From a virus, in IMG/VR virus record IMGVR_UViG_3300028048_000007, positions 1-60,539 of that record: DNA of 60,539 nt. One strand, 5' to 3'. The notes beneath the pieces were generated by a model that saw nothing but the letters and a program-made list of their open reading frames with translations, made no database searches and had not been told where the DNA came from. The stretch's first letter is position 1. Each line of letters opens with the position of its first letter. A program made the position numbers and the translations under genes. This document shows positions 4,376-60,539 of this stretch, piece after piece.

Positions 4376-5722
4376 TTACCTACCTCTAATACTATTATTC
4401 TTTCTCTCCTTAACATCAGCTACATAATAATCATCAAGTGCATACCATATAGCGGAAAGGGTGTGAGGGTCGATGTTAAACTCACTGTACTTTAAACTTC
4501 CATCGGGATTCTTTTTGTAACTCAAATCCCTACACTCACGAATAGTATTATGGCAATTGCTACTACAAATAATTCGCTTAAAGCGTTTTATCTTTTTGGT
4601 ATTTGCAATTCTACTTCCTTCTGTTTTCTTATCGCACTTCTTTAAACAAGGTCGCATTTGGAAACCCTGTTTACGATAATACTTGATTGTTTTAGGCTCT
4701 GCACAATCTGCACGAATAACTTCATCCTTAATACCTTTATCCCACTTTTGAAGTGCAATAGCGGTTTCATCATCGGTCATATGATTTCGGTAATACTCAT
4801 CATAAATGTATAACCATTTGTTAACATCATCAACTGCAACTTTAAGCACAGCATTGTAACTTGTTTCAAAACCGAAATCCATACCGACTCTATGGAAATT
4901 AGCAGGTACATTAAGTACAGCCTTATCAACCAATTTAGCAGACATAACTTCAAATTGAGGAAGTACACGAAGTCCAGTAGCACCGAACTGTCCTAATCTT
5001 GCAACAACCCAAAGTTCTTTATCATATGTTTTCATTTCATCCAAACGTCTTATATAAGCAGGTGGTAAGAATTGGTTATCATCACAAGTGCTATGGTGAT
5101 AGTAAACTCCGTTCTTCACCAATACTTTCTTCTTATACAAAACTTCGGGTTTAACAATAATGGTAGTATTTCCATCACTGTCAGTGTTCTCAAAGAACTG
5201 TTGGTAAACCCAGTTATTTTTACTTATAGGGTTACAGGTAAGTATGAAGTGCATACTGATACCATTTGTACGAATACGCCCTAATATTTCCAAGTAAGCA
5301 TCGAGGGAAACTTCTGAACATTCCTCTATCCATACAATACTTACACCGTTTAACGACTTTAGTTTTTCGGTACTATCCATACCTTTGAAGATTATTCTAC
5401 TTCCATTAGGAAATTTGAATTCAAGTGGAGCATTTTTAAAACACACTTTGGTCTTATGTTGTCTTACACCAACATCTGCAAGCAACCCCATGTCATCCAA
5501 AACCTGTTTAATTAAGTCGAATGTACTCTCTTTGTGTGTGTCGTATACATCTCTGAATACACACGCCTTTCTTTTCTCTGCAAACAGTTTCAGAATTATC
5601 TTTTGAACCGTACTGTGTGATTTACTACTACCATATCCACCAATTACCAAATACTTTTCATAATCCCAATCGAAGATGTAATTATCAAAAGCAGGATTGA
5701 TACACATTGTTGCTTTCGGCAT
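4376..5722 (-). CDS. terL: Terminase large subunit (PBSX/Terminase_3-like)
   Basis: Walker A GGYGSSKSH, Walker B IVWIEECSE, C-terminal nuclease region (GMDFGFE). Start moved to MPKATM (ATG 5720-5722) behind AAGGAGAGAG. Confidence 0.9.
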   Translation of the reverse strand: MPKATMCINPAFDNYIFDWDYEKYLVIGGYGSSKSHSTVQKIILKLFAEKRKACVFRDVYDTHKESTFDLIKQVLDDMGLLADVGVRQHKTKVCFKNAPLEFKFPNGSRIIFKGMDSTEKLKSLNGVSIVWIEECSEVSLDAYLEILGRIRTNGISMHFILTCNPISKNNWVYQQFFENTDSDGNTTIIVKPEVLYKKKVLVKNGVYYHHSTCDDNQFLPPAYIRRLDEMKTYDKELWVVARLGQFGATGLRVLPQFEVMSAKLVDKAVLNVPANFHRVGMDFGFETSYNAVLKVAVDDVNKWLYIYDEYYRNHMTDDETAIALQKWDKGIKDEVIRADCAEPKTIKYYRKQGFQMRPCLKKCDKKTEGSRIANTKKIKRFKRIICSSNCHNTIRECRDLSYKKNPDGSLKYSEFNIDPHTLSAIWYALDDYYVADVKERKNNSIRGR

Positions 5723-5753
5723 TTTACTCTCTCCTTTTTTATATAATAGCAAA

Positions 5754-5783
5754 ACAAGCCATCGACTTCTGCCGATAACTTGT
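5754..5783 (-). promoter_or_regulatory. Hairpin in the terL leader (AACAAG..ATCG / CGAT..CTTGTT, then TTTTG on the coding strand); attenuator/terminator-like
   Basis: Read by eye; lies between the 5861-5888 promoter and the terL RBS. Confidence 0.35.
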
Positions 5784-5860
5784 TGCCTATAACTTTTAAC
5801 TTTTTACAAGGGAATCTTTACAATAGAATATATTTGAATAGAATACTTCCGACATATACA

Positions 5861-5888
5861 ATTATACCATATATATAATATAAGTCAA
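5861..5888 (-). promoter_or_regulatory. Sigma-A-type promoter for terL (-35 TTGACT, 16-nt spacer, -10 TATAAT)
   Basis: Reverse complement of 5861-5888 reads TTGACTtatattatatatatggTATAAT. Confidence 0.55.
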
Positions 5889-6129
5889 CAAACATTCTAT
5901 TCATATATAATACATTTCGATACATAAAATCATTTTTGAATTTTACTTTTTCTTTTATATATTTTCTTTTTATATATTATATATATTTATATATACATAT
6001 AACATACATATTACTGATATACAGCGAAAAGCGGATAAAAATTTTTAGTAAATGGAAGTGAGTAGCGTTCAAAGTGTTTTTAATGCACTTCAAAACATTC
6101 TACTCAATCTTCCATATTCTTACTAATTG

Positions 6130-6804
6130 TTACTCTTCACTTTCATCATCTTCCCAGTTATCCCAAAGTTCACTTTCTTCATCACTTAATTCATCTGAAT
6201 CATCACCACTTTGTTCTAACTGCTCTTTTGTGTATGTTACAGATTTGTTTATTACATCACCGTTTTCATCGTAAATTTCAACGTTCTCATCTTCATCGGT
6301 AACTTCTTCATCTTCATCGTAGATATCAATTTTCTGTTTATTTCCTCTTTGTATAGTAATAGTAACTTGACTATCATCGGGGTCAACTTCAACAATTTTA
6401 TCTCTATTAAGTTTCCAATCTTCAAATTTTCTGTTATTAAGCCAGAACATTGCGGCTTTGACATTCGGTGGAACTTCTTTTACGGTTGTTTCTTTCAACA
6501 TCTCAACCATTTCACCATTTACCATTTTCTTTCCTATGGTAACCTTAATCTCTTTCGTTTTATATCCTAATGCCGCTTTTAAAATAGCATTTTCAACTTG
6601 ATAATCTACAAGTTCTCTTGTTGTATTAATTGCTTCATCTATTTCAGCATATTTCTTTTGCCATTTTACGAGAGTGTTTACATTTATATTCATACGCTTT
6701 GCAATTTCTGCTTTACTAAATGTATCTCTCGACCAACTTCTTATTAATTCAAGTCCATCTTCTGTAAGCCAATAATCGACTTTACTTTCATTTATGTTTC
6801 CCAT
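6130..6804 (-). CDS. terS: Terminase small subunit (N-terminal HTH) with a strongly acidic C-terminal tail (..ELWDNWEDDESEE)
   Basis: 224-aa ORF. The segment ..TFSKAEIAKRMNINVNTLVKWQKKYAEIDEAI.. is typical of terS HTH domains; position upstream of terL. Confidence 0.7.
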   Translation of the reverse strand: MGNINESKVDYWLTEDGLELIRSWSRDTFSKAEIAKRMNINVNTLVKWQKKYAEIDEAINTTRELVDYQVENAILKAALGYKTKEIKVTIGKKMVNGEMVEMLKETTVKEVPPNVKAAMFWLNNRKFEDWKLNRDKIVEVDPDDSQVTITIQRGNKQKIDIYDEDEEVTDEDENVEIYDENGDVINKSVTYTKEQLEQSGDDSDELSDEESELWDNWEDDESEE

Positions 6805-7035: not shown

Positions 7036-7253
7036 TTCAAATGGCTTTATATATGAAATGGGTGGAGGATTTCTGGGAGAGTAGTAGCGCACAAAAATTA
7101 AATAGCACCCATTATGATTGCCTATCCCCCACACACCTGTTATTATTTCATGCGTTATATATCGGGTGTTATTGTGGGGATTTGATAACAGATTTTATTT
7201 TTTATCGAGAGGCTGGCAACGTACCTATTCAATCACACTTATTATTTATTTTA

Positions 7254-8619: not shown

Positions 8620-8660
8620 GTTTAAAACCTCCGTTTAGTGTGGTTTGTTTTGTTGTGCTA

Positions 8661-8689
8661 ACTATATCAAATATATTTGTTGATTGCAA
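8661..8689 (-). promoter_or_regulatory. Sigma-A-type promoter (-35 TTGCAA, 17 nt, -10 TATAGT) with an AAAATATTTT UP-like tract
   Basis: Reverse complement reads TTGCAAtcaacaaatatatttgaTATAGT; member of the conserved promoter family. Confidence 0.6.
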
Positions 8690-9167
8690 CAACTTTTTAA
8701 AATATTTTTCAAAAATCTTTTTCTATTTTCCATTATTAGGAAGAAACGCACACAAAACAGATAAACACGGCATTTTTACATATATTGTTTAATATTGCAC
8801 AACGAAAATAATAAAACGTTGGTTAAGATATACAAAAACAATGATTTACAATAGATTTTTTCAAAATTTACAAAATATTAAAAGTTTGTTCGGTTTTGTC
8901 ATACCCTACAAACCGCATGGTTAAGCGATTTTGCCCATTAAGGGTCGAACAAAGACTTTTTCGATAAAGTTATCATTAAAAGGGTAAAATTCAAATTTGG
9001 GGCGTTTTTGAGCGTTTTAAGGGCATATCTAAAATGTCAAGAAAAATCGTAAAATTGACATATAGAAAAAATATCATTGTTTTTGGTTATTTTTAACAAG
9101 TGGTATTTTCTGGCACTTAAAACAGCTTATTTACAGAAAATAGATTAAATTGTTTTCAATTTGTTTT

Positions 9168-9234
9168 AATTGTGTAAAAATTTAAGTTTTTCCGTTCTCT
9201 GGTATTTTCGGGATATTTAAATTTTTACACAATT
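9168..9234. repeat. Perfect 18-bp inverted repeat AATTGTGTAAAAATTTAA / TTAAATTTTTACACAATT with a 31-nt spacer
   Basis: Arms 9168-9185 and 9217-9234 are exact reverse complements. Confidence 0.9.
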
Positions 9235-9367
9235 AATCAAATTGACTATACAATTCTCAAATATTGCTATTTTCCGTTTCTGGCATCCGATAAAATAAAA
9301 TATTTGCTGTTATGTTATTTTCTATCCCTGTTTTTAATAACAAACGGTATTTTATCGGGCATCCTGT

Positions 9368-9384
9368 AAATTGTCAGACAATTT
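9368..9384. promoter_or_regulatory. 17-bp palindrome AAATTGTC-A-GACAATTT (operator-like); same core as 14909-14923 and 15010-15024
   Basis: Self-complementary by inspection. Related half-sites ATTGTCAGA at 9400-9408 and 9460-9468, and ATTGTC at 9471-9476. Confidence 0.6.
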
Positions 9385-9403
9385 GCTCATTTTCGTTAAA
9401 TTG

Positions 9404-9417
9404 TCAGAATATTCTGA
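9404..9417. promoter_or_regulatory. 14-bp perfect palindrome TCAGAATATTCTGA overlapping an ATTGTCAGA half-site
   Basis: Self-complementary by inspection. Region 2 has the near-identical TCTGAATATTCTGA at 15035-15048. Confidence 0.5.
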
Positions 9418-9476
9418 AAACTCGGTGAATTGTACTCATTTTCACACACAATTATGCGAATTGTCAGAAAATTGTC

Positions 9477-9510
9477 GGGGCGGTCGGCGTGGGCGGTCGG
9501 GCGGCATCCG
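9477..9510. other. Isolated GC-rich island (GGGGCGGTCGGCGTGGGCGGTCGGGCGGCATCCG) containing GCGGTCGG twice
   Basis: Stands out by eye in an otherwise AT-rich non-coding region. Confidence 0.8.
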
Positions 9511-9753
9511 TTCTTCCTACGTACTTTCTTTTTACGTTGTTTCTGTATTCGCATTATGTCATATTCGCATTATGTCGTATAACGCTCAAATTCGGCTCAT
9601 TTTCGCATTTTGTACCATTAATGGTATATTTATATACCTACACAATAAAAACGCCATTTTGAGGCAAATTTGAGCGTTTTACGTATGCTTTATTACATAG
9701 ATATATAAATACAGCATTATTTATATACTTTTCATCGTTCCTGTACTGTTTTT

Positions 9754-9894
9754 AGTGTAGTAGGAAGAATTTTTAGTAGTAGGATGAATTTTGAAAAGTA
9801 GTAGGAGAAATTTTTCGTAGTAGACGGAATTTTGCACAGTAGGAGGAATTTTGAGTAGTAGAAGGAAAATTAAAGAGTAGTAAAAGGAATTTTT
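9754..9894. repeat. Tandem array of 7 imperfect 16-22-bp repeats, consensus AGTAGTAGGAGGAATTTT (iteron-like; every unit keeps a GGA core)
   Basis: Units start at 9754, 9775, 9797, 9817, 9838, 9854 and 9876. Confidence 0.9.
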
Positions 9895-9912
9895 AACATA
9901 TCCCAGAAACAA

Positions 9913-9940
9913 GGAAAAACGGCATTTACTGCCGTTTTCC
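9913..9940 (-). terminator. Rho-independent terminator after 9962..10384 (GGAAAACGGCA-gtaaa-TGCCGTTTTTCC, then T-rich)
   Basis: 11-bp GC-containing stem with one bulged A, followed by TTGTTTC on the coding strand. Confidence 0.75.
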
Positions 9941-9961
9941 TATTGGTATCTGTATTTACTT

Positions 9962-10384
9962 TTACTTTCTCTTTTTGTTGTGATTTTCCTTATAATACTT
10001 CATAGATTCGGGATAAAACAGATTGATTATATCTCCCAAACCTGCATTGAGAAATACCGCATATTTAATCATCTTTTCAATGTTAGGATTCTGTTTTCCC
10101 TGTAATACCTTTGTGGTATTTGCTATATCATCTCCAATAGCCTGTGCAAACTCTGATACAGTGTTATAACCGTATGCTTTCAGAAAATCTTTTCTTACTT
10201 CATACACTTTATCGGGAATTGCCTTTTTAACCGTCTTATTTGCCGTTTTAACAGGCTTTACGTTCTTTTTGGTACTTTTTACCGCTGTTGTCTTCTTTGT
10301 AGGCTTCTTGACCGTTTTAGCGGCTTTTACAGACTTATTTGCAGTTACCTTCTTTGTATTCTTTGTATTTGCTGTTTTTCTCAT
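9962..10384 (-). CDS. DNA-binding protein: Lys-rich histone-H1-like N-terminal repeats plus a C-terminal XRE-like HTH
   Basis: 140 aa. KKVTANKSVKAAKTVKKPTKKTTAVKSTKKNVKPVKTANKTVKKA, then ..VSEFAQAIGDDIANTTKVLQGKQNPNIEKMIKYAVFL.. Confidence 0.65.
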   Translation of the reverse strand: MRKTANTKNTKKVTANKSVKAAKTVKKPTKKTTAVKSTKKNVKPVKTANKTVKKAIPDKVYEVRKDFLKAYGYNTVSEFAQAIGDDIANTTKVLQGKQNPNIEKMIKYAVFLNAGLGDIINLFYPESMKYYKENHNKKRK

Positions 10385-12703: not shown

Positions 12704-12743
12704 TTTATTTCCCTCCATAGGTTTTATTTGTTTTGTTGTATTT

Positions 12744-12772
12744 AATATATCATACTATTTTGTTACTGTCAA
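12744..12772 (-). promoter_or_regulatory. Sigma-A-type promoter, family consensus copy (-35 TTGACA, 17 nt, -10 TATATT)
   Basis: Reverse complement reads TTGACAgtaacaaaatagtatgaTATATT, preceded by an A/T UP-like tract. Confidence 0.7.
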
Positions 12773-12791
12773 CAACTTTTTTTTATTTTTT

Positions 12792-13178
12792 TTAATTCGA
12801 CATTGATAAAACCCATTTGGACTTTTTCATTTCCTGCTTTGCTTTTCTTATCAGTTCTTTGTATCTCTTTATTTCGTCTTTGTATGCTTTCTTTTCCTCT
12901 TCTGTTGCAATTCCCATATACCAACTATATGTATTGATTCTTTCAGTGTAAAACTCTATGTCGTTTCTGTATTCTTCAATCCTTTTCTTTATTTCGTTTT
13001 CAAACTCAATCTGTTCTTCTGATTTGCTGTTATCAACTAATTTCTTACCTGTGTTGTAAATATCCTGCTTTGTGAGTTTATCGTTCTCCATATAAAGTGC
13101 TTCTAATGATTTATACACTCTGTAGTTATACTCTGTTTCCTTGCATCCTGTATTTTCAACAAATTCGCTGTACAACAT
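12792..13178 (-). CDS. Hypothetical protein (128 aa), Lys/Glu-rich helical
   Basis: ORF track. Confidence 0.65.
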   Translation of the reverse strand: MLYSEFVENTGCKETEYNYRVYKSLEALYMENDKLTKQDIYNTGKKLVDNSKSEEQIEFENEIKKRIEEYRNDIEFYTERINTYSWYMGIATEEEKKAYKDEIKRYKELIRKAKQEMKKSKWVLSMSN

Positions 13179-13257
13179 GTTTTCATCCTCCGTTTATCAT
13201 CTCTGTTTTAATGACTACGTTAGTTTGTTTTAAACTGTAATCATCTTTGTTGTACTC

Positions 13258-13286
13258 AATATATCATAGCGTTTTGTTGTTGTCAA
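13258..13286 (-). promoter_or_regulatory. Sigma-A-type promoter, family consensus copy (-35 TTGACA, 17 nt, -10 TATATT)
   Basis: Reverse complement reads TTGACAacaacaaaacgctatgaTATATT, preceded by AAAAATATTTTTAAAAAAG. Confidence 0.7.
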
Positions 13287-13429
13287 CTACTTTTTTAAAA
13301 ATATTTTTTATTTTTATTTTCCCTCTTTTTATCGGTCTTTGTTGTTCTTCCGTCACACGGTTTTACTCTTGTATTTTCTCCGCACACTTTAAAATAAATG
13401 CATCCTTTACAGGGATTTTTTACACTCAT

Positions 13430-14596: not shown

Positions 14597-14684
14597 TTTG
14601 TCAACCTCTTTTCAATATTTTGTTTTCAATGTGCGGTTTGCAATTCTACCACCAACAACCTGTTAATGATACCTTGCAAGTATC

Positions 14685-14713
14685 ATATTACACCCACCTG
14701 TTGTTATTGTCAA
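14685..14713 (-). promoter_or_regulatory. Sigma-A-type promoter (-35 TTGACA, 17 nt, -10 TAATAT)
   Basis: Reverse complement reads TTGACAataacaacaggtgggtgTAATAT, with an A/T-rich UP-like tract at 14714-14750. Confidence 0.7.
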
Positions 14714-14908
14714 CAACTATTTTAAAAAATTTTCAAAAAGTTTTTTTCACGGAAATAAAATCTTGACATTGTATATCACAACAAAAGAAAATGCAACTTA
14801 AAATTTTCACCAAATTTTTCATTGGTTATTGTCAACTTTCCCATGTCTGACAATTTACAAATTTTTCGGTTTCTGTATTGACAATGGATTGAATTTTCTG
14901 ATAATCAG

Positions 14909-14923
14909 AATTGTCTGACAATT
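14909..14923. promoter_or_regulatory. 15-bp palindrome AATTGTC-T-GACAATT (operator-like), directly downstream of a plus-strand TTGACA/GATAAT promoter-like pair (14878-14905)
   Basis: Self-complementary by inspection. Confidence 0.6.
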
Positions 14924-15009
14924 AAATGTTATTTTACCGATTTTGGGATGGTTTTTAGACAATTTAAAAGAAACATGTGTGATTCATACACAACTCCGAA
15001 AGCTGTCTG

Positions 15010-15024
15010 AATTGTCTGACAATT
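15010..15024. promoter_or_regulatory. 15-bp palindrome AATTGTC-T-GACAATT (second exact copy in region 2)
   Basis: Self-complementary. Flanked by half-sites GTCTGA (15005-15010), GTCTGAATATTCTGACAATT (15034-15053), plus 14845-14855 and 14957-14964. Confidence 0.6.
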
Positions 15025-15190
15025 TGGTGAGTTGTCTGAATATTCTGACAATTCTGAAAATTCGGATTCGGTTTTGTACCCCATATACGTATACGCATAC
15101 ACACGTACATACGTACTTACTTATTTACTATATTATTTCGCATTATGTATACGCCACCACACGGTACACGTTACATGTGTTACACTCAAC

Positions 15191-15310
15191 AAATAAATAG
15201 AAAGTACATTCTGCGGATAAATTGATGTGATAAATACCAAAGGGGATTCTTTGTCATGGCAAAAACAAAGTGATTATTATGTTCTCACAGAATGTACTCT
15301 CTATTTATTT
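15191..15310. repeat. Long inverted repeat: 23-bp arms (22/23 complementary) around a 74-nt spacer; candidate structured RNA or cruciform
   Basis: 15191-15213 AAATAAATAGAaAGTACATTCTG versus 15288-15310 CAGAATGTACTcTCTATTTATTT. The spacer holds a small CTTTG..CAAAG hairpin. Confidence 0.85.
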
Positions 15311-15347
15311 ATTGTAATGCTTTTGTATTGTTCCACCAAGCTAATAC

Positions 15348-15400
15348 AGTAGTAGGAGGAATTTTGAGTAGTGGGAGTTTTTAGTAGTAAGAGGATTTTA
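15348..15400. repeat. Tandem array of 3 repeats of the same AGTAGTAGGAGGAATTTT family as 9754-9894
   Basis: AGTAGTAGGAGGAATTTTG / AGTAGTGGGAGTTTTT / AGTAGTAAGAGGATTTTA. Confidence 0.85.
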
Positions 15401-15420
15401 AACCATATAAATAAAACAAT

Positions 15421-15505
15421 GGGGAGATAGCCTTATTATTACCGATAAACGGTTACAAGGACTTACGCTCTCCCCAGATGAGGAAGGTGGGGTAAGTCAC
15501 CTTCC
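15421..15505 (-). terminator. Two consecutive hairpins after 15505..15846: GGAAGGTG-n8-CACCTTCC (15482-15505, includes the TAG stop) and GGGGAGA..TCTCCCC (15421-15475), then a T-rich run
   Basis: Read by eye; ATTGTTTTATTT follows the second stem on the coding strand. Confidence 0.65.
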
Positions 15506-15846
15506 TAAATCCCTATTTTATTTTCCAAATCATACAGGTAAATAATTGCTTGCTGAAAATCTTCTTTTCTTATCTCAATTGCTCCTGTATCATCGTTCTT
15601 ATGTGTAAATCTTCTCTTTGGTGTTACAATCTTACTCTTCTCTTTGATTATCTCATCTATAAAGTTATCTGCCACCTTATAAATAATAAATGCAACCAAA
15701 AATGCTAAACACTTAAGAACATCATCTATATCGGTAAAAAGTAATGTTGCTATAACTCCCAGAACAAACAATAAGTTGATTGCAACAATTACTGTTTTAA
15801 TTGAAAGAAGCTTTGCAAACTTTCTTTTTAATATTTTTGCTATCAT
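15505..15846 (-). CDS. Hypothetical membrane protein (113 aa, two TM); stop codon TAG
   Basis: ORF track; hydrophobic segments VIVAINLLFVLGVIATLLF and LAFLVAFIIY. Confidence 0.65.
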   Translation of the reverse strand: MIAKILKRKFAKLLSIKTVIVAINLLFVLGVIATLLFTDIDDVLKCLAFLVAFIIYKVADNFIDEIIKEKSKIVTPKRRFTHKNDDTGAIEIRKEDFQQAIIYLYDLENKIGI

Positions 15847-16160: not shown

Positions 16161-16604
16161 TTACTCATCTTCTTTTTCAAACTCTTTTCTTAATCCGTCT
16201 GCAAGACCTTTTAAATCGTGTTCCATTTTATTCTTAAACACATTCATCTTGCACTCATTACAATTGCAATCTCCTGCCATGTAGAATATTGTATGTAACT
16301 GTTTGCAATTCTTACAATGTTCATCAATTGCATCTTTTAAACTTCTTACGCAATACAAGGAAACTGTAAATACCGTTCTTGTCTGCTTCGCTTTTATTAC
16401 CTTGCCTGTTTTCTTCTGTCTGACAAGTTTTTCTATCTCTTTTGTACTTTTGTTGACCTGTACCGATATGTTTTTAGAATAAGAAGGACTATTATAAACA
16501 TGGGTTGCTAACCACTTAACGGCTTCCATAAAAACTTCTTTGGAAACATCTCCCTCAAACTCTTTATCGAGTATCTTTATGCTATAATTTTCTAAATCTG
16601 TCAT
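16161..16604 (-). CDS. Hypothetical protein with a C-terminal Cys cluster (147 aa)
   Basis: ORF track; ..HCKNCKQLHTIFYMAGDCNCNECK.. Confidence 0.65.
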   Translation of the reverse strand: MTDLENYSIKILDKEFEGDVSKEVFMEAVKWLATHVYNSPSYSKNISVQVNKSTKEIEKLVRQKKTGKVIKAKQTRTVFTVSLYCVRSLKDAIDEHCKNCKQLHTIFYMAGDCNCNECKMNVFKNKMEHDLKGLADGLRKEFEKEDE

Positions 16605-31488: not shown

Positions 31489-33045
31489 TTAATTTACCTC
31501 TCTACATAATAAAGTGCTGTTATATTTCGTTACTCTACTTATGTATTCCTTTTTATCGAATGTAGCCGCACCACATTCTTTTAACTTTGATAACACACCA
31601 ATGTTTACTGCACTTCCTTTAAAGTGTGTTCTATCGTAGAAATTATCATATGAAGTAAATATACCGTTCTTCTTTCTTTCTTCTACAATTTGAAGTGCCG
31701 CTTTTTCACCGATACCTTTTATATCAGAAAGACCTTGTTGTAAACAATATTCTCCTTCAACCTTTCTTATTCTTGTTTTAACATCAGAATAATTTATATG
31801 AGGAAGAAATACAACGTTTCCTGCTTTTGCCGCTAACACGCAACACTTATAATAAGTATCGTCATTTGGTGCATACTTTAATTTACCAAACCAGAAATGC
31901 AACGGATAATGTACCTTGTAAAACATTTCCTCTACAGCAAGTAGTGCATAACCAACTGCATGACCTTTGTTAAAACCATACATGTCGGTTGCTGAACTAA
32001 ATATCTGCTCCGCTTCATCTCGTTTAAAACCATTTGACATAGCACCCTTTACAAATATGTCATGAAGTTCTTTCTTTGTCTGATTAAACTTCTCACGCTT
32101 CTCTGGTGACATTGCTTTTGAACCATCCATTTTCATAACCTTATCTGCATCTGTCCATTCCATACCACCAAGATAAACACATATCTGTTGTACTTGCTCT
32201 TGATAAATAATTGTTCCGTATGTTTCTTTTGTATAATCATAATACAATAATTCTTTTGCAGTTTCGATATTGCTCTTATTATCTGCGTACTGTTCGGGCA
32301 TGTGTGTTGATAATGCGGCAGGTCTATTCATTGCATTTGCGGCTACAACATCATTGAAGTCTGTACAGTTAATATCAACCAACATGTTTCTAACAGTTTT
32401 CTTATCAAACTGAAATACGCCTTGCGTATCTCCTTTATGAAATGCTTCAAGCACATCTTTATCTTCAATTGCTTTGTCATAGTCAACAGTTACACCTGTA
32501 AGTTCTCTTAACTCACCAATCTCTTCCATTGTTTGAAGTCCAAGAATGTCAAACTTGATAACTCCAATTGCTTCAATGTCATTCAAATCATAATTGGTGT
32601 AAACGTTTCCTTCTTTATCCATTTTCAAAGCTGTATAATCAAGTATATCTCCACCTGTTACAGCAACACCTGCGGCATGTGTACCAATATATCTTACTTT
32701 CTGATACAACTTACTAAAATGAATAAATATGTTATCATACTCTTTGTTATACATCTGAATCTCTTTGTCTTCCAACATTGCATCCAAATCCAAATTGGAA
32801 TCAGAATCAAGATATTTATTACAAAGTGATTTAATCTGTTTTATTGTTCTTTCATTACTTGCTTTCTGTTCACCATCAACAGTTTTATCAGTAGGCAATC
32901 CACAAACCTTTGCTAAATCATTTATAAGGTTGTCTACTTTATACAGACCATAAGAAACTATTCTTGCTGTATGTCCTTCATATTTATTTATGATATACTC
33001 GATTACTTCATGTCTTCTTGCTGTTTCAAAATCAAGGTCAATATC
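31489..33045 (-). CDS. dnaE: DNA polymerase III alpha subunit (DnaE-type), exon 2
   Basis: Begins DIDLDFETARRHEVIEYI.. (the catalytic Asp motif) and continues with ..GTHAAGVAV.., ..KFDILGLQT.. The ATG listed at 33046-33048 is interpreted as the last intron codon (ends in G). Confidence 0.8.
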   Translation of the reverse strand, partial: DIDLDFETARRHEVIEYIINKYEGHTARIVSYGLYKVDNLINDLAKVCGLPTDKTVDGEQKASNERTIKQIKSLCNKYLDSDSNLDLDAMLEDKEIQMYNKEYDNIFIHFSKLYQKVRYIGTHAAGVAVTGGDILDYTALKMDKEGNVYTNYDLNDIEAIGVIKFDILGLQTMEEIGELRELTGVTVDYDKAIEDKDVLEAFHKGDTQGVFQFDKKTVRNMLVDINCTDFNDVVAANAMNRPAALSTHMPEQYADNKSNIETAKELLYYDYTKETYGTIIYQEQVQQICVYLGGMEWTDADKVMKMDGSKAMSPEKREKFNQTKKELHDIFVKGAMSNGFKRDEAEQIFSSATDMYGFNKGHAVGYALLAVEEMFYKVHYPLHFWFGKLKYAPNDDTYYKCCVLAAKAGNVVFLPHINYSDVKTRIRKVEGEYCLQQGLSDIKGIGEKAALQIVEERKKNGIFTSYDNFYDRTHFKGSAVNIGVLSKLKECGAATFDKKEYISRVTKYNSTLLCREVN

Positions 33046-33820
33046 CATTCATACCCTCGGTTTCCCGATATTTATTAGGGGATTAGACTATCTCTTACAG
33101 AATCAAATTCTGTTGTGGCACTTCCGCTGTGTGCTTATCTCACAGCGTACTTCCTTACGGAATAGTCGTTACATTTTTCGCAATTCAACTTCTTTGTTTT
33201 TGTAATGTTTAACAAGCATAGAATAACTACAACCATATTTCTTTGAAGCATACTTACTTGCATCTGTTACGCTCCAAAAAGAATTAATAAATTCACCTTT
33301 GTAATACAAATCAATAACATTATAATTTCTAAAAGGTGTATCTTTTCTTCGTTCATAACCTTTATTAATGTTATCTTTTTGTGTTACCCAACGGAGATTT
33401 TTATAATAGTTATTCTCTTTATTTCCGTCAATGTGGTCAACAACAAGTTCTTCTTCATAGCCTTCACAAAACAACATAGCAACCGCCCTGTGAATTGCAA
33501 TTCTTTTCACTACACCTTCATCAGAACACTTAATATACAAATATCCTTGGTTACTTTTGTAAGGTGTCAAATTTCTTCCTGTTTTCTTGTTGTAAACATC
33601 ACCACATTCATTAACGCAAATGTTTTTAAAATTTGGAATTACCTTAAACATACAAAAACTCCTTGCGACTTAACTCGGTATTACCAACTATCCATTTCTG
33701 GACTTTAGGTTTTCTTACGAAGCGTATTCGTGCATATAGCCTTATTTAACTTCTACCGATAGCATAGCATTACGCTACACACCTGTTAGCACAGTTCACC
33801 ACATACGCCCAATATTGTTT
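33046..33820 (-). mobile_element. Group I intron (775 nt) in dnaE carrying an HNH homing-endonuclease ORF
   Basis: Exon 1 ends ..FRRFLRKDKKKLP (last nt U) and exon 2 starts DIDLDF; joined they parallel E. coli FERFLNPERVSMPDFDVDF. Intron ends in G. GGGCG at intron nt 12-16 can pair with exon UGCCU (U.G at the splice site). GUAA-tetraloop hairpins in both non-coding flanks. Confidence 0.75.
33169..33651 (-). CDS. HNH homing endonuclease (HNH_3 type), intron-encoded
   Basis: ..HRAVAMLF..VVDHIDGNKENNYYKNLRWVTQKDNINKG.. Confidence 0.85.
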   Translation of the reverse strand: MFKVIPNFKNICVNECGDVYNKKTGRNLTPYKSNQGYLYIKCSDEGVVKRIAIHRAVAMLFCEGYEEELVVDHIDGNKENNYYKNLRWVTQKDNINKGYERRKDTPFRNYNVIDLYYKGEFINSFWSVTDASKYASKKYGCSYSMLVKHYKNKEVELRKM

Positions 33821-35002
33821 AGGCAACTTCTTCTTATCTTTTCTTAAGAATCTACGGAAGTCCATACCGAACATTAAACTGTCTATTTCGGTTATTCCCA
33901 ACGCATAAGCAACAAGACAGTTACAACAACTACCTCTGCCAGGACCAACTGTAATTCCCTGTTCCTTTGCCCAGTTTACGTAGTCTGCAACAATAAGGAA
34001 GTAATCATGAAAACCAAGGGTTTCAATTACATCATATTCCTGTTTAATACGGTCTATATATTCTTTCTTCCACTTACCTCTTCTTTCAAGACCTTCTTTT
34101 ATCTGTTTCTTTAATAGTGACTTACTATCCTTTGAATACTTGGGTAAGATTTCTTCAAAGTCAGCAAACATATCATCAACACATTTATCTTCAATCTCTT
34201 TTAAGTTTCTGATACATTGTTTACCGAATTTCTTGCACATCTCTTCTGTCTTAAAATCAACAGAGTGCATGTTAACAAATCGTGTGTAAAGTTCTTTGTC
34301 TGTAGGCATATATCTTTCTTTATATGTCCTTGCAATTTCATCTACATCATGATTTGCTATTTCGTGCATCTTTAAATAAGATTCAAAATCATCTTTCCTA
34401 CCTCTATGAGAATCAGAAGTAAGAATACATTTAATACCAAGTTCTCTTGACAATTCAATCAGAGTTTTATTTACAAGTTGCTGTAAACCTTTTTCAGAAA
34501 CTTTATAAGGCTGTAATTCTATATAAAAGTCATCAGCAAAAATGCTTTTCATTTTCTTTAAATATTTTCTTGCTTTATCTATGTCACCCTTAACAATACA
34601 TTGTGAACTGTAAGAAGCAACACAAGCAGAAGTAACAATCAAACCCTCATGGAACTTTTCTAACAACTCAAATGTCCAAATAGGATTGTAATACTTCTGT
34701 TTTTCTCCCTCTGTCTGTAAAGCATTTAAGTTGTGATAGCCTTTTGGATTCTTTGCAAACACACACAAATGATAACCTCTGTGCTGTTCAATATATTTTG
34801 GTAAGAAATAACCTTCAACTCCCAATATTGGTTTTATTCCAACTTCCATACATGCTTTGTAATGCTGTACCAAGTTGTTTGTATTTCCGTGGTCGGATAT
34901 ACCTAAAGCGGTATGACCTAACTCTTTTGCTAATTTTGCCAACTCTTTAGGTTTACCAAAACCATCATACGTACTACATTCTGTATGTCGGTGTAAATCC
35001 AT
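33821..35002 (-). CDS. dnaE: DNA polymerase III alpha subunit (DnaE-type), exon 1 (PHP domain and start of the palm)
   Basis: MDLHRHTECSTYDGFG..LGISDHGN..GVEGYF.. PHP motifs. The 16 codons after ..KKKLP in the ORF track are read as intron. Confidence 0.8.
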
Positions 35003-35913: not shown

Positions 35914-36909
35914 TTACTCCCAATCATCATCCTCTTCGTCATCATCTTCATCTTCCCAATCATCATGAGCCTTGTCATTTTCTTTAAGAAGATTGATATA
36001 ATACTTTTCTGACTTCTTGGGTTGTGCTTCTATATCTCTTTCCTTGCAAAGTTTATACAATTCCTTTGCAGACATTGAAGAATAATCTACCTCATCATCT
36101 TCTTCTCCATCTTCCCAATCATCATTGTCATCATCACTGCTGTTCTCTTCGTCATACTCTTTCAACAGTTCAATGTAATAATCCTTGGGATTCTTGGGTT
36201 CTGCTTCAATCTCTCTCTCTTCACAAAGTTTGTAAAGTTCCTTTGCAGACATTTCGTTGTAGTCAACATCTGTATCAACTTCTCCCCAAGGAAGTTCCTT
36301 TTCAGCAGACTTCTTTTTGGTTGAAGATGACTTCTTCTTCATCTTGGGGGAATCATCTTCATCCTCATCATCATCTCCACCAAGAAGATGTGAATGTTCA
36401 TCGGGATATGCCTTATCAAGAAGTTCAAGAAATGCTTTCTTTGAAAAAGGCTTTGCTTTTGCGTTCTTAAAACTATTCTTATCCATAGGCATAGCAGACA
36501 TTGTTTTATCCTTCTGCTTTCCTTGGCAACTGATAACATAATCTCTATCGGTAATTGTTCCGTAAGTTTCATATGCGGCAGTAATTGCTCCAAGAGGTGA
36601 ACAGTTATTCATGGCATACATGAAAATCTTAACTTCTTTTGCTTCATAATCCCAAACAGACCAAGCATAAAGAGTTCTTGTTCTCAAACCTTCCTCATCA
36701 CAATAAGGGCAACTCTTACCGAACATCTCTCTACAAGGAACATTGATGTTTGCTTCAAAGTTGTCGTGGAAAACAACTTCAATTCCATCATCCAAATCCT
36801 GTAAAAATCTTACTCTTCTTTTCTCTCCGTCCTTACAGAAGAAGAACTTTGTTTTACTGCCACCTGTTTTCTGTGCATCCTGTTTAATTTTGTCTAACAA
36901 ACCTGCCAT
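35914..36909 (-). CDS. Putative single-stranded DNA-binding protein (Zn-finger OB-type) with two C-terminal HeH/SAP-like repeats and an acidic tail ..EEDDDWE
   Basis: ..VPCREMFGKSCPYCDEEG.., position among replication genes, acidic C-terminus. Tandem DY(N/S)xMSAKELYKLC(E/K)ER(E/D)IEA(E/Q)PK..YYI(E/N)LLKE repeats. Confidence 0.5.
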   Translation of the reverse strand: MAGLLDKIKQDAQKTGGSKTKFFFCKDGEKRRVRFLQDLDDGIEVVFHDNFEANINVPCREMFGKSCPYCDEEGLRTRTLYAWSVWDYEAKEVKIFMYAMNNCSPLGAITAAYETYGTITDRDYVISCQGKQKDKTMSAMPMDKNSFKNAKAKPFSKKAFLELLDKAYPDEHSHLLGGDDDEDEDDSPKMKKKSSSTKKKSAEKELPWGEVDTDVDYNEMSAKELYKLCEEREIEAEPKNPKDYYIELLKEYDEENSSDDDNDDWEDGEEDDEVDYSSMSAKELYKLCKERDIEAQPKKSEKYYINLLKENDKAHDDWEDEDDDEEDDDWE

Positions 36910-55474: not shown

Positions 55475-55518
55475 TTTATTATTCCTCCTTATTTGTTGTA
55501 GGCTTCAACCAATTTGTT

Positions 55519-59684: not shown

Positions 59685-60539
59685 TTAAACAATTACGATT
59701 TCCTGTCCGACATAAATTTTATTCTTATTTGGAATATTGTTTGCCTTAACAAGTGCATCAACCGTTGTATTATATCTCTTTGCTATTGAAGAAAGAGTTT
59801 CATTATGAATAACAACGTGAGTCTTTTTGGTTTGTTTTCTTTGATTTACAATCTCATTAACTCTTGCCTGTACTTGTTTTGCATCATATCCACTTGCATT
59901 TAATCTAATGGCTCTTATTGGATTGTTGCCCCACACTCCTGCAAGAACCTCAATGGCTAACTGGTCTACAGACTTCTTTATTACAGTAGGAACTACTACA
60001 GGTTCTTGTGCAATTTGAACCTCATCACCCCAAAGGATATAGAAAAAGTCTTGGTCTATTGTAGTTCCATTTATTTTAGAACTTCTCACATAATTTACAG
60101 AACCTCCATATTGCCAACATTCGCAACTAAAACTTGGAGGATTCTTTGAGTATTTCGCAACCCAAAATGGAAATTTACTTACCTGTGATTTATCAAAACG
60201 TGATTTGAAATGACTCTCACTTGTATAAACACCACAGATATAACCTGCATTTACCATTGTTTGACAAAATGTTTTTATAATGTCAGTAAGATGCGTATAA
60301 CCTTGGTTAAGCATTTTTCCTTCAACATCATAATAAACATGCTTTATTGCTTTTCCTTTAAGGTACTCAATAAAATAATTTGCTTCTTTAACTGCATCAG
60401 CAGTAGAAAAGGCACAACCAAAATAATACGCTCCAATTTTCCACGCACCTGCTCTTGCTTGTGTATAGAAATTTTCAAACTGTGAATCTTTGTAATAACT
60501 TCCGTCTGCTCCACCTGCTTTAATTATACAGTGAGTAAA
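59685..60539 (-). CDS. Endolysin, 3' portion: rest of the GH25 muramidase, one Cpl-7 (CW_7) repeat and a C-terminal LysM (continues upstream at 754..1 through the circular junction)
   Basis: ORF stays open from 60314 to the window end (..GAYYFGCAFSTADAVKEANYFIEYL..). ..TIDQDFF.. ends GH25. ..SVDQLAIEVLAGVWGNNPIRAIRLNASGYDAKQVQARVNEIV.. is CW_7-like. ..HVVIHNETLSSIAKRYNTTVDALVKANNI..VGQEIVI is LysM. Confidence 0.85.
   Translation of the reverse strand, partial: FTHCIIKAGGADGSYYKDSQFENFYTQARAGAWKIGAYYFGCAFSTADAVKEANYFIEYLKGKAIKHVYYDVEGKMLNQGYTHLTDIIKTFCQTMVNAGYICGVYTSESHFKSRFDKSQVSKFPFWVAKYSKNPPSFSCECWQYGGSVNYVRSSKINGTTIDQDFFYILWGDEVQIAQEPVVVPTVIKKSVDQLAIEVLAGVWGNNPIRAIRLNASGYDAKQVQARVNEIVNQRKQTKKTHVVIHNETLSSIAKRYNTTVDALVKANNIPNKNKIYVGQEIVIV
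60413..60539. repeat. Second copy of the 127-bp terminal overlap (identical to 1-127)
   Basis: 127/127 identical. Confidence 0.95.

Follow-up and report, generated by a model that had tools for sequence, protein, structure and literature searches.

Described systems with short direct repeats

Several kinds of repeated control element have been described in phages and bacteria. Origin iterons are known from phages and plasmids, bipartite arrangements among them (lambda ori; P4 ori plus crr; SPP1 oriL and oriR). In T7-like phages, the short repeat arrays SRL and SRR flank the terminal repeats. At the RNA level, polypurine sequences that resemble Shine-Dalgarno (SD) sites occur as 5' stabilisers in Bacillus and its phages, as in STAB-SD of cryIIIA and the polypurine stabiliser of phage SP82. 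In Gram-positive phages, the Ltr superfamily (RinA, ArpU, LtrC, Alt) comprises late regulators that bind direct repeats. These repeats are 7 nt long, occur in 2-4 copies adjoining the activator gene, and lie within a few hundred bp of the activator-dependent terS promoter (PMC3753634).

In this study, we analysed a complete, circularly permuted siphovirus genome of 60,539 nucleotides (hereafter the window), in which nearly all genes are on the minus strand, and examined two arrays of short direct repeats in its noncoding DNA. The sequence-only reading of this DNA knew of no described phage element of this form. That statement needs qualifying, as the Ltr repeats share the genomic position of the arrays (PMC3753634). 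Both are direct repeats placed immediately past the last gene behind the replication module, with all copies facing the same way, and both form the 5' edge of a terminator-holding intergenic region upstream of terS. Unlike the Ltr repeats, the units here measure 12-25 nt, with 3-8 copies per array; the next promoters are close to consensus and lie at a distance of 0.5-1 kb, and the upstream genes vary by lineage.

The arrays also resemble origin iterons, being tandem direct repeats of ~19-22 bp in noncoding DNA near the replication module, and they resemble bipartite origins, being two sites of one family, one large and one small, a few kb apart. They differ from iterons in that their spacing is not conserved, their units are degenerate and the two strands show a strong purine/pyrimidine asymmetry.

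Two arrays of one repeat family

Array 1 (positions 9754-9894, + strand) reads as seven head-to-tail GTAGTAGGAGGAATTTT-like units, which span 9757-9893. The units have the form GTAGTAG-RRRGRA-TTTT (gene-sense AAAATTCCTCCTACTAC), with a period of 19-22 nt. Array 2 (15348-15400, + strand) contains three units of the same family at 15349-15400. With up to 3 mismatches allowed, the consensus GTAGTAGGAGGAATTTT has nine matches in the window, every one on the + strand, starting at 9757, 9776, 9798, 9817, 9836, 9855 and 9877 in array 1 and at 15349 and 15384 in array 2. The number expected by chance is 0.27 +/- 0.49, and none of 100 dinucleotide-preserving shuffles reached nine, which rules out chance or low complexity as the origin of the arrays. 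The middle unit of array 2 (GTAGTGGGAGTTTTT, 15367) is more degenerate and was detected by eye and by the repeat finder only.

Tandem Repeats Finder reported array 1 at 9757-9895 (periods 19, 41 and 60; 74-78% matches; score up to 152) and array 2 at 15348-15399 (2.9 copies). The repeat search placed both sites in one family, with spacings of 19, 22, 19, 19 and 22, and units within one array are 65-82% alike. Seven tandem units at 9754-9894 and a related three-unit array at 15348-15400 had been proposed by the sequence-only reading; both are confirmed, with matches far beyond shuffled expectation and with both sites recovered by the repeat finder. The individual units it listed were also recovered, with starts shifted by about 3 nt because each unit had been begun at the preceding A/T. 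A coding repeat was rejected: the 63-aa ORF across the array is of low complexity, has no ribosome-binding site (RBS), and its frame drifts between relatives.

Each array lies past a gene end and a hairpin, at the start of a large noncoding region, and the array-bearing regions are the two largest noncoding stretches of a compact genome. Noncoding region 1 (8620-9961; 1.34 kb), the largest in the genome, has array 1 on its gene-end edge, and noncoding region 2 (14597-15504; 0.9 kb), the second largest, has array 2 on the corresponding edge. Their far ends hold sigma-A-type promoters on the minus strand, TTGCAA-17-TATAGT with TG (8661-8689) in region 1, which drives the next genes, and TTGACA-17-TAATAT (14685-14713) in region 2.

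The two regions have a duplicated module in common, made up of boxes and palindromic operators, which is what one would expect of a control or origin region. Three copies of the box TTCGCATTATGT are found at 9548-9613 on the + strand, and one further copy is located at 15137-15148. This box has five matches against 0.36 expected, four of the five inside the two noncoding regions. A cluster of AATTGTCAGACAATT-type palindromes at 9369-9473 resembles the CodY box AATTTTCWGAAAATT, and a second cluster of this type occupies 14892-15053 in region 2. The CodY-like boxes adjoining the arrays suggest that these phages read the nutritional state of the host, which, if true, would be of wider interest.

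The best conserved noncoding segment adjoining array 1 (9596-9720) has 86% identity to the related genome L010, against 70% in its flanks. It holds a + strand promoter-like element, TTCGCA-17-(TG)TATATT at 9602-9630, together with nested inverted repeats. On the other side of array 1, an intrinsic terminator of the upstream minus-strand gene (9914-9940, minus strand; 11 pairs, U-rich minus-strand tail) stands between that gene and the array and is kept in L010. This hairpin scores as a good terminator on the minus strand and as a weak one on the + strand; with its symmetric A-tract/U-tract stem, it may be weakly active in both directions.

Conservation of the arrays among related phages

The window belongs to a family of ~50-60 kb phages of Gram-positive bacteria, in which the arrays occupy one genomic position in one orientation. 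This family is large and uncultured, occurs in gut and rumen metagenomes, and is represented by thousands of detected TerL relatives. It spends 1.5-2.5 kb of a compact genome on noncoding control regions with a conserved layout, of which the repeat array is the most regular landmark.

Array 1 is kept unit for unit in L010, L019 and L021, and the three units of array 2 are kept in L019. A relative that is ~70-78% identical in DNA retains all seven units of array 1 and three at site 2. Analogous arrays of equal position and orientation were found in at least eight related lineages, including L012, L025, L028, L030, L031, L032 and L033. This unit-for-unit retention and the family-wide presence of analogous arrays bear out the earlier proposal of selection on the repeats. 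Judged from these comparisons, the arrays are a selected element and not a product of chance.

The gene-sense unit common to the lineages is an A-run followed by YCTC(C) and TA(C). The period (12-25 nt), the copy number (3-8) and the exact sequence all drift across lineages. The window has a period of 19-22 nt; L012 and L030 have 13-14 nt, L028 has 12-17 nt, and L031 and L025 have 20-25 nt. The internal spacing of the shared A-run, YCTC and TA varies by 1-5 nt between lineages. In the closest relative, AGGAGG is replaced by AGAAGGAA. The sequence-only reading had placed a GGA core in every unit, which is correct for most of them (ACGGAA included) and fails for the AAAGCGA unit of a relative; likewise, the persistence of GGA and the T-run that it described is rough, and not strict once relatives are included. 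The array is 77% conserved against 70% for its flanks, a slight excess. Purine/pyrimidine-class selection inside the array was rejected, as its transition/transversion ratio is not different from that of the flanks (p = 0.69).

The position of the arrays is similarly regular. Arrays begin 0-270 nt past the preceding stop codon, and the array of L025 overlaps it. The next gene follows after 580-790 nt (1135 nt at site 1), and the far end of this stretch carries a sigma-A promoter close to consensus. Most lineages have a hairpin or terminator in the sense direction before the array. Orientation relative to transcription is identical in all 11 arrays. What we observed directly is the repeats themselves, how they are conserved, and their constant orientation and placement. 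The genes just upstream are unrelated between lineages, which rules out a link of the array to one specific upstream gene. L013, a more distant relative, has neither the large noncoding regions nor the arrays, and Bajarodcaudo virus 5, which is related through its capsid, is organised on a different genome plan and has no such array.

When viral, metagenome and genome collections were scanned with degenerate two-unit patterns, the close relative was recovered, and all other matches were (GTA)n microsatellites or singletons. Eight exact-consensus matches in viral contigs were likewise singletons, all attributable to chance, and apparent units inside the Hydrolase_2 genes of L030 and L033 proved to be an artefact of an over-loose pattern.

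A putative protein-binding platform on DNA

The arrays may act as protein-bound DNA or through an RNA. Our tentative preference, held with less than even confidence, is that they are degenerate protein-binding direct repeats on DNA, like origin iterons or late-activator repeats. The arrays would then form a cis-acting, multi-site binding platform for a phage-encoded (or host) DNA-binding protein and would mark the upstream border of the two large control regions of the phage. Each array sits just beyond the terminator of the preceding operon. The 0.6-1.1 kb that follow are AT-rich and apparently untranscribed, are crowded with other repeats and palindromic operators, and end in the near-consensus sigma-A promoter of the next genes. 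Several molecules of a single protein would load next to one another on the units. The loaded protein may then organise the initiation of replication, with the units as iterons in a two-part origin made of one large and one small site, like those of some phages; alternatively, it may control the switch to the downstream operons, the role that late-activator repeats have in phages of Gram-positive bacteria. A protein as the ligand, its binding to duplex DNA and the process under its control are points that we infer.

In most lineages the array stands behind a sense-direction hairpin or terminator, and antisense promoters have no consistent place, so transcription of the array may be slight; this favours a role at the DNA level. 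In L028, an inverted copy of the unit abuts the array, and inverted unit copies often accompany iterons and operators. Once identified, the protein that binds the array would locate the origin or the late-gene switch in a group without a recognisable initiator or late activator. Its identity would also aid the annotation of such genomes and the building of replicons or reporters.

With regard to replication, the arrays share with iterons the presence of direct repeats of one sequence in noncoding DNA, and helical-phase spacing (about 11 or 22 bp) is not kept among relatives. The sequence-only reading had supported its iteron alternative by a spacing of about two helical turns, by the copy number and by neighbouring AT-rich DNA. 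The arrays may still be iterons, but two of these supports fail. The spacing is not conserved, as shown by the 13-14 nt periods of L012 and L030. In a nearest-neighbour scan, the least stable DNA lies at 5850-6020, with array-side DNA outside the top 10, which rules out iterons beside a DNA-unwinding element. The initiator or partition-type protein proposed for the arrays was not found in PHROGs, Pfam, NCBIfam and PDB sequence searches, which left many proteins unannotated. A syntenic 147-aa Zn-binding candidate (16161-16604) gave a moderate structure model with no significant fold match. A plasmid-type centromere (ParR/TubR iterons) was rejected, since no ParA, ParM, TubZ, integrase or plasmid functions were found.

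With regard to late transcription, searches for an Ltr-type activator, small proteins included, gave no match to ArpU, RinA, Sigma70_r4 (sigma-region-4) or DUF1492, families so divergent that a cryptic member may have escaped. With downstream promoters so close to consensus, and at a distance of 0.5-1 kb, there is no obvious need for an activator. Weak promoter-like sites, recognised partly by eye, are located 20-35 nt past some arrays (L030, L031 and window site 2). The idea that TerS itself is an Alt-like late activator was discarded, because Alt in Tuc2009 is a different gene.

Further properties of the arrays count against recognition by a protein on duplex DNA. Units so degenerate that they share only the A-run, YCTC and TA are unusual for such a site; the period of 12-25 nt does not keep helical phasing; and the array is only slightly better conserved than its flanks.

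A possible role of the sense-strand RNA in Rho loading

The strand asymmetry of the arrays has no obvious role in duplex binding, and a function as RNA or single strand fits it better. The sense strand of the arrays contains 19-32% C and 4-11% G, compared with a genome sense average of 13% C and 21% G, and the arrays are the only noncoding patches in the genome with asymmetry of such strength (z > 4). One such function, which we regard as possible though improbable, is Rho loading. The sense transcript of the array would be a C-rich, G-poor, unstructured rut-like site after the last gene of the operon. It would serve as a back-up terminator or as an insulator, so that read-through transcription does not enter the downstream control region.

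The orientation of the arrays to transcription and their place at or just behind a stop codon are in line with this function. Rut sites are C-rich, G-poor, unstructured transcript tracts of at least about 60 nt, and the arrays would likewise give 53-141 nt of C-rich, G-poor sense RNA just past the operon end, predicted to be essentially unpaired. Rho covers roughly 13 nt per subunit, and the periods of L012 and L030 are near this footprint. A signal of the composition type would also tolerate degeneracy, a variable period and a variable copy number, and L025, L028, L030 and L031 have no convincing intrinsic terminator before the array. However, an intrinsic terminator often comes before the array, and that of the window is a good one, so little sense RNA should reach array 1. 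Rut function would leave the conserved A-run and TA(C) unexplained, and no such tract is present at other operon ends in the genome. We know of no rut site made of tandem repeats. Rho has a limited role in many Firmicutes.

A possible antisense RNA with ribosome-binding-site look-alikes

We consider it unlikely that the arrays act through the opposite strand, as a short + strand RNA that starts in the control region, runs through the array and ends at the two-way hairpin, carrying look-alikes of RBSs without start codons. The antisense repeats would bind either the 30S subunit, thereby stabilising the RNA in the manner of STAB-SD or acting as a ribosome decoy, or CsrA or another protein that recognises GGA. 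The sequence-only reading had offered SD mimics or CsrA-type motifs as its RNA alternative. A weight matrix and intermediate duplex energies support it weakly, and composition, loops, Rfam and the loss of AGGAGG speak against it.

Specifically, a weight matrix of the units reaches scores >=11 on the + strand almost solely in the arrays, and on the sense strand it retrieves true phage RBSs (e.g. at 55478, 10387 and 41958). Duplexes of the units with the 16S tail have a median energy of -6 to -8 kcal/mol, compared with -8.9 for real RBSs and -1.6 for background, but several units are weak (-2.4 to -4.6 kcal/mol). Over all arrays we counted 41 SD-like sites against 27.1 +/- 3.0 in composition-matched shuffles, none of which (0/200) reached 41. 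For the window alone, site 1 has 5 sites against 4.0 +/- 1.2 (67 of 200 shuffles reach 5) and site 2 has 3 against 1.9 in shuffles. The SD-likeness of the arrays appears real, though mostly owed to their purine-rich composition. The lineages differ in the core yet remain SD-like (GGAGG, GAGGA, AGGTG, GGGGAG), but AGGAGG is not kept in the closest relative and some units have no GGA.

Transcription of the + strand could start from the promoter-like element TTCGCA-17-(TG)TATATT, which lies ~125 nt upstream of array 1 and is conserved between the window and L010; at site 2, CodY-like boxes overlap + strand promoter-like sites. This antisense promoter is conserved only in the lineage of the window, however, and other lineages have no consistently placed counterpart.

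The known stabilisers STAB-SD and SP82 are similar in being polypurine, SD-like sites that do not serve initiation, and the unit core matches the phage RBS consensus. They differ in that each is a lone site at an mRNA 5' end and has cargo downstream, whereas the arrays have 3-8 tandem copies on the strand opposite all genes, with no gene downstream on the + strand to be stabilised. Similarly, CsrB, RsmY and RsmZ share with the arrays several GGA repeats between a possible promoter and a terminator. In the arrays, unlike these RNAs, the GGA motifs lie outside hairpin loops (fold z-score only -2.1) and are not universally kept, and Rfam gives no match at the gathering threshold or at E <= 5. To our knowledge, no CsrA sponge RNA of the CsrB/Rsm type is known in Firmicutes. 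We regard it as quite doubtful that the arrays give rise to a small, abundant noncoding-strand RNA whose 3-8 start-codon-less RBS copies titrate 30S subunits or a CsrA-type regulator. If they did, no earlier description of an RNA sponge for ribosomes or a translation regulator would exist for a Firmicutes phage; the RNA would possibly be switched by nutrient state via the adjoining CodY-like boxes, and an RNA role of this kind would give phages a new way to interfere with translation.

Packaging, R-loops and other candidates

A role in packaging, with the arrays as sites for the small terminase subunit TerS in an extended pac region or as accessory sites, is very doubtful. Of the DNA-binding proteins near the arrays, TerS (6130-6804) alone is kept in every array-bearing lineage (47-67% identical across these phages), and the arrays lie 0.8-3 kb upstream of terS on the shared strand. 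The PBSX/Terminase_3-type TerL and the circularly permuted assembly are consistent with headful packaging, and TerS rings bind repeated or bent DNA elsewhere, as in SPP1 pacL/pacR and the P1 pac hexamers. Known pac sites, however, lie within or adjoining terS; here up to five genes intervene, and the second array is 8.5 kb away from terS. A better candidate for pac is an invariant box ~290 nt upstream of terS, which is unlike the array motif, with weight-matrix scores <=6.3.

Least probable of the readings that we weighed is an R-loop, in which antisense transcription of the purine-rich repeats would leave a stable RNA-DNA hybrid, to be cut by the phage RNase HI into primers for its PolA; the origin would then resemble those of ColE1 or T7 and need no initiator protein. 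In favour, a + strand RNA from the arrays would be rich in purines and poor in C, genes for RNase HI, PolA, primase and RecA are present in the phage but no recognisable initiator is, RNase HI lies ~1 kb upstream of site 2 in all lineages, and the + strand promoter-like element is conserved in the lineage of the window. This evidence is all indirect; a consistent antisense promoter is missing from other lineages, G-runs are absent, and the conserved A-run, CTC and TA motif would be left unexplained.

The SRL/SRR arrays of T7-like phages are similar in being two arrays of a short, same-orientation motif with irregular spacing in noncoding DNA, but they belong to a different phage type, and the window has a headful-type terminase and no evidence of terminal repeats. 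A type III antitoxin (ToxI-like) or pseudo-antitoxin would be expected to have repeats of 34-45 nt and a toxin gene, against units of 12-25 nt and no toxin-like neighbour here, and a CRISPR-like array, TRAP/HutP triplet sites, sigma-H tandem promoters and Chi-like arrays were set aside by reasoning, as their defining partner genes, spacing or conservation are missing.

Gene and hairpins beside the arrays

The gene directly before array 1 (9962-10384, minus strand) encodes a protein of 140 aa whose N-terminal tail is rich in Lys and which has a weak Cro/C1-type HTH; it is found in the lineage of the window only. Only one other contig encodes this protein and is 100% identical to the window; it therefore represents the same genome and offers no population variation to read. 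The run SRR8442993 holds this identical genome.

At site 2, a tRNA suspected between the box and array 2 in L019 was not found. Read directly from the sequences, two minus-strand hairpins (15421-15506) are located between the stop codon of the gene at 15505-15846 and array 2. The stem at 15480-15506 shows compensatory changes in L019, and its loop GGGTAAGT is conserved.

Two repeat arrays lie in duplicated control regions

On the + strand of the window, array 1 (9754-9894) contains seven head-to-tail units resembling GTAGTAGGAGGAATTTT, and array 2 (15348-15400) contains three further units of this kind. We found nine matches to the GTAGTAGGAGGAATTTT consensus with at most three mismatches, all on the + strand and all within the two arrays, whereas dinucleotide-preserving shuffles gave an expectation of 0.27. 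Tandem Repeats Finder and a repeat finder agreed on the units, which have spacings of 19, 22, 19, 19 and 22 nt and a likeness of 65-82%. Thus, the tandem repeats noted in the sequence-only reading were borne out.

The window's two largest noncoding regions (8620-9961 and 14597-15504) hold one array each. In the direction of transcription, both open with a gene end and a hairpin, followed by the array, an inverted repeat, TTCGCATTATGT boxes, a patch of odd composition, a cluster of AATTGTCAGACAATT-type palindromes, AT-rich DNA and a sigma-A promoter serving the next genes. Since both regions hold the same order of elements, they are two copies of one composite module. They contain 4/5 matches to the TTCGCATTATGT box and all 10 matches to CodY-box-like palindromes (1.75 expected). 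The palindromes are 15 bp long (AATTGTCAGAAAATT, AATTGTCTGACAATT and similar) and cluster at 9369-9473 and 14892-15053, with weaker matches at 14728-14816. They differ at one or two positions from AATTTTCWGAAAATT, the Firmicute CodY box consensus. Some overlap promoter-like hexamers, and a close relative also carries such palindromes. They suggest that the control regions of the phage may read the nutritional state of the host.

The arrays are conserved across the phage family

The close relative (DNA identity about 70-78%) comprises one 54-kb contig (L010 = L016 = L021) and the 11.6-kb contig L019. Its array 1 has the same seven units, position for position, its array 2 has three units, and the arrays are 5.6 kb apart as in the window. 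GTAGTAG, the purine hexamer and the T-run are kept, and AGGAGG is not, because the consensus of the relative reads GTAGTAGAAGGAATTTT. With relatives taken into account, the proposed persistence of GGA and the T-run holds only roughly. Identity was 77% in the array, 70% in flanking noncoding DNA and 86% in the adjacent segment 9596-9720, and the transition/transversion ratio was equal within and outside the array.

TerL relatives number in the thousands, many on 50-62 kb contigs, and seven further lineages were obtained via TerS or TerL. Their common gene order is RNase H, a few genes, noncoding gap A, small genes, noncoding gap B, in some cases more small genes, and TerS. Except in L029, each lineage readable at the equivalent place has an array where gap B borders the gene end, always on the same strand. 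In gene-sense orientation, the arrays read AAAATCCTCGTATT in L030 (4 units, period 14), AAAATTCTCCCCTTA in L012 (8 units, period 13-14), AAAACTCCTCGT in L028 (5-6 units), AAAAATCTCA...TACACC in L031 (about 6 units, period 20-25) and AAATCCCTCGTAATACAA in L025 (3 units), while units in L032 and L033 end in AAAACTCCTCCTACTAC. Common to all on this strand is an A-run followed by YCTC(C), 1-5 nt and TA(C). The edge of gap A is the counterpart of the window's site 2; L031 carries one unit there.

The geometry is also constant. The array starts 0-270 nt past a stop codon and is 53-141 nt long, and the stretch behind it, of 580-790 nt (1135 nt for array 1 of the window), has a near-consensus sigma-A promoter at its end. 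Neither long noncoding gaps nor arrays were found in L013, a more distant relative. In these comparisons, the array stands out as a genuine noncoding element, kept by selection and present family-wide.

The arrays as possible protein-binding sites on DNA

We tentatively prefer, at odds clearly below even, that the array's degenerate repeats form a platform on DNA to which protein binds, for an origin or a regulatory switch. The arrays resemble bipartite phage origins in having a large and a small site, here tandem direct repeats in control DNA. Three findings speak against the iteron option of the sequence-only reading. The spacing of two helical turns is not kept, the period ranging over 12-25 nt across the family; the genome's least stable DNA lies at 5850-6020, between TerS and TerL, and not beside the arrays; and no recognisable replication initiator was found in PHROGs, Pfam, NCBIfam or PDB sequence searches. 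The window's genes also yielded no partition protein and no integrase.

The genes directly upstream of the arrays are unrelated from lineage to lineage. The gene at 16161-16604, directly after RNase HI, encodes a 147-aa protein whose four cysteines (CxxC...CxxC) are invariant. The protein is syntenic, occurs only in array-bearing lineages and is missing from array-less L013. It had no family match, and its predicted model (pLDDT 69, moderate) had no significant structural match. Immediately before array 1, a 140-aa protein (9962-10384) combines a histone-H1-like Lys-rich N-terminal tail with a weak C-terminal Cro/C1-type HTH; it occurs only in the window's lineage, the L019 copy being 78% identical.

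In Gram-positive phages, the late activators RinA, ArpU, LtrC and Alt bind direct repeats just past the final gene that follows the replication module, where the intergenic region upstream of terS has its 5' edge; these repeats are necessary and sufficient for activator binding (PMC3753634). They are the closest positional precedent for the arrays. The likeness to Ltr repeats is in position and single orientation; however, the arrays of the window's family are longer, more numerous and far from near-consensus promoters, and, unlike in the late-activator systems, no Ltr protein was detectable for them.

Alternative functions of the arrays

Next in probability, though unlikely, is a rut-like tract that loads Rho on the sense RNA. 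The arrays are the only strongly C-rich, G-poor noncoding stretches on the sense strand (z = 4.4-5.7), other such patches of the genome being Pro/Gln-rich coding sequence, and a tract of this composition at an operon end fits Rho loading. The sense RNA is also essentially unpaired across the array. However, the hairpin ahead of array 1 is a good intrinsic terminator (9940-9914, minus strand), so little sense RNA would reach the array.

We consider it improbable that the arrays act as an antisense RNA mimicking Shine-Dalgarno (SD) or CsrA-type GGA sites, the other option of the sequence-only reading. About 125 nt from array 1, the window and the close relative both keep a promoter-like element on the + strand; the other lineages have no consistently placed antisense promoter. 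The unit core does resemble this phage's ribosome-binding sites, since a unit-derived weight matrix picked almost only arrays on the + strand and real phage ribosome-binding sites on the sense strand. Duplexes of the units with 16S had median energies of -6 to -8 kcal/mol, between the -8.9 of real sites and the -1.6 of background. Yet purine richness accounts for most of this SD-likeness: composition-matched shuffles gave 27.1 +/- 3.0 SD-like sites against 41 observed in all arrays, and 4.0 +/- 1.2 against 5 at window site 1. The + strand RNA is not notably structured, its GGA motifs lie outside loops, and no Rfam family matched the arrays even at permissive thresholds.

Terminase binding by the arrays is very unlikely, an R-loop primer site there slightly more so, and the remaining probability falls to something beyond these five readings.

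Genome organization and host

The window is a genome of the siphovirus type, and almost all of its genes lie on the minus strand. It encodes TerS (6130-6804), TerL (4376-5752), portal, major capsid and tape measure proteins, together with PolA, primase, RNase HI, a true RecA, a Cas4-like nuclease, resolvases, ThyX and MazG for replication. Positions 1-110 and 60420-60539 match one stretch of the close relative's contig, so the ends overlap by about 100 nt, as circular assemblies typically do. Because the two ends of the window join and SRR8442993 contains an identical contig (60,431 bp), the window is a complete, circularly permuted genome. Coding-strand promoters of the classic TTGACA-17-TATAAT type, strong GGAGG ribosome-binding sites and the Clostridia and Bacilli hosts of capsid relatives point to a Firmicute host.

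An HNH homing-endonuclease gene (33169-33651) splits the PolA-type DNA polymerase (31489-35002) into ORFs at 33770-35002 and 31489-33048, and the primase region may likewise be interrupted by an endonuclease-VII-like ORF (35914-36909). A promoter cassette (A/T-rich UP-like stretch, TTGACA, 17 nt, TATATT, leader) is repeated at 8644-8722, 12727-12795, 13241-13319 and 14701-14746. Its copies stand before several small genes between the arrays, a block that looks like an early, host-takeover-type region with one promoter per gene.

TerS and TerL are separated by a 377-nt noncoding gap (5753-6129), an unusual place for one, with (TA)n and other short repeats and, at 5850-6020, the genome's most AT-rich DNA (up to 93% AT); it is another candidate origin or packaging signal. 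Some records (KX160215, KX160213, DQ394807 and others) label lactococcal P335-type homologues of TerS as 'activator of late transcription' or 'transposase'. The Alt-like gene of Tuc2009 is a separate gene, and these labels look like annotation errors.

Other conserved noncoding elements

In all seven lineages aligned, the box TCC-Y-R-GAAATCCT is invariant and stands at an almost constant 270-300 nt before the TerS start (window about 7064-7090, minus strand; L012 9716, L028 2776, L029 1262, L030 6194, L032 3443, L033 5729); in most of them ATATATAAGGCCCTC comes next. We regard the box as a candidate for a pac site or a late-leader element, and its score does not place it in the array-motif family.

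TGTTTCACGTGAAACA, a perfect palindrome of 16 bp, has 2-4 copies at each locus in L025, L028, L030 (4123, 4788, 5155, 5610), L032 and L033, mostly at gene ends and within noncoding gaps, replacing the CodY-like palindromes of the window's lineage. The palindrome may serve as an operator or as a two-way terminator.

Further conserved gap pieces are CTGTCAACGTCMCAGAAAAAATAT, TTAGCAG repeats and a ACGCACAC-type patch (L028 1822, L030 5985, L032 1106, L033 4147, L012 7697; window 15080-15120 and 9478-9510). In the window, the patches are CGTATACGCATACACACGTACATACG at site 2 (15080-15120) and a GC-rich GGCGGTCGG repeat at site 1 (9478-9510). On the reverse strand, the ACGCACAC patch resembles lactococcal Chi, GCGCGTG. 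Gap A of L033 (1700-1930) holds about eight irregularly spaced copies of another repeat, AAATAACAGAAG, a second family besides that of the arrays in a region of this kind.

Right after the stop of gene 15505-15846, a hairpin (15480-15506) has a counterpart in L019 (about 5715-5745), with compensatory stem changes (GAGGAAGGTG/CACCTTCCT against AGAGGTG/CACCTCTT) and the loop GGGTAAGT kept. Another hairpin, about 100 nt past the arrays of L028 and L030, also shows compensatory changes and keeps the loop AAAAACTTGYCATTA.
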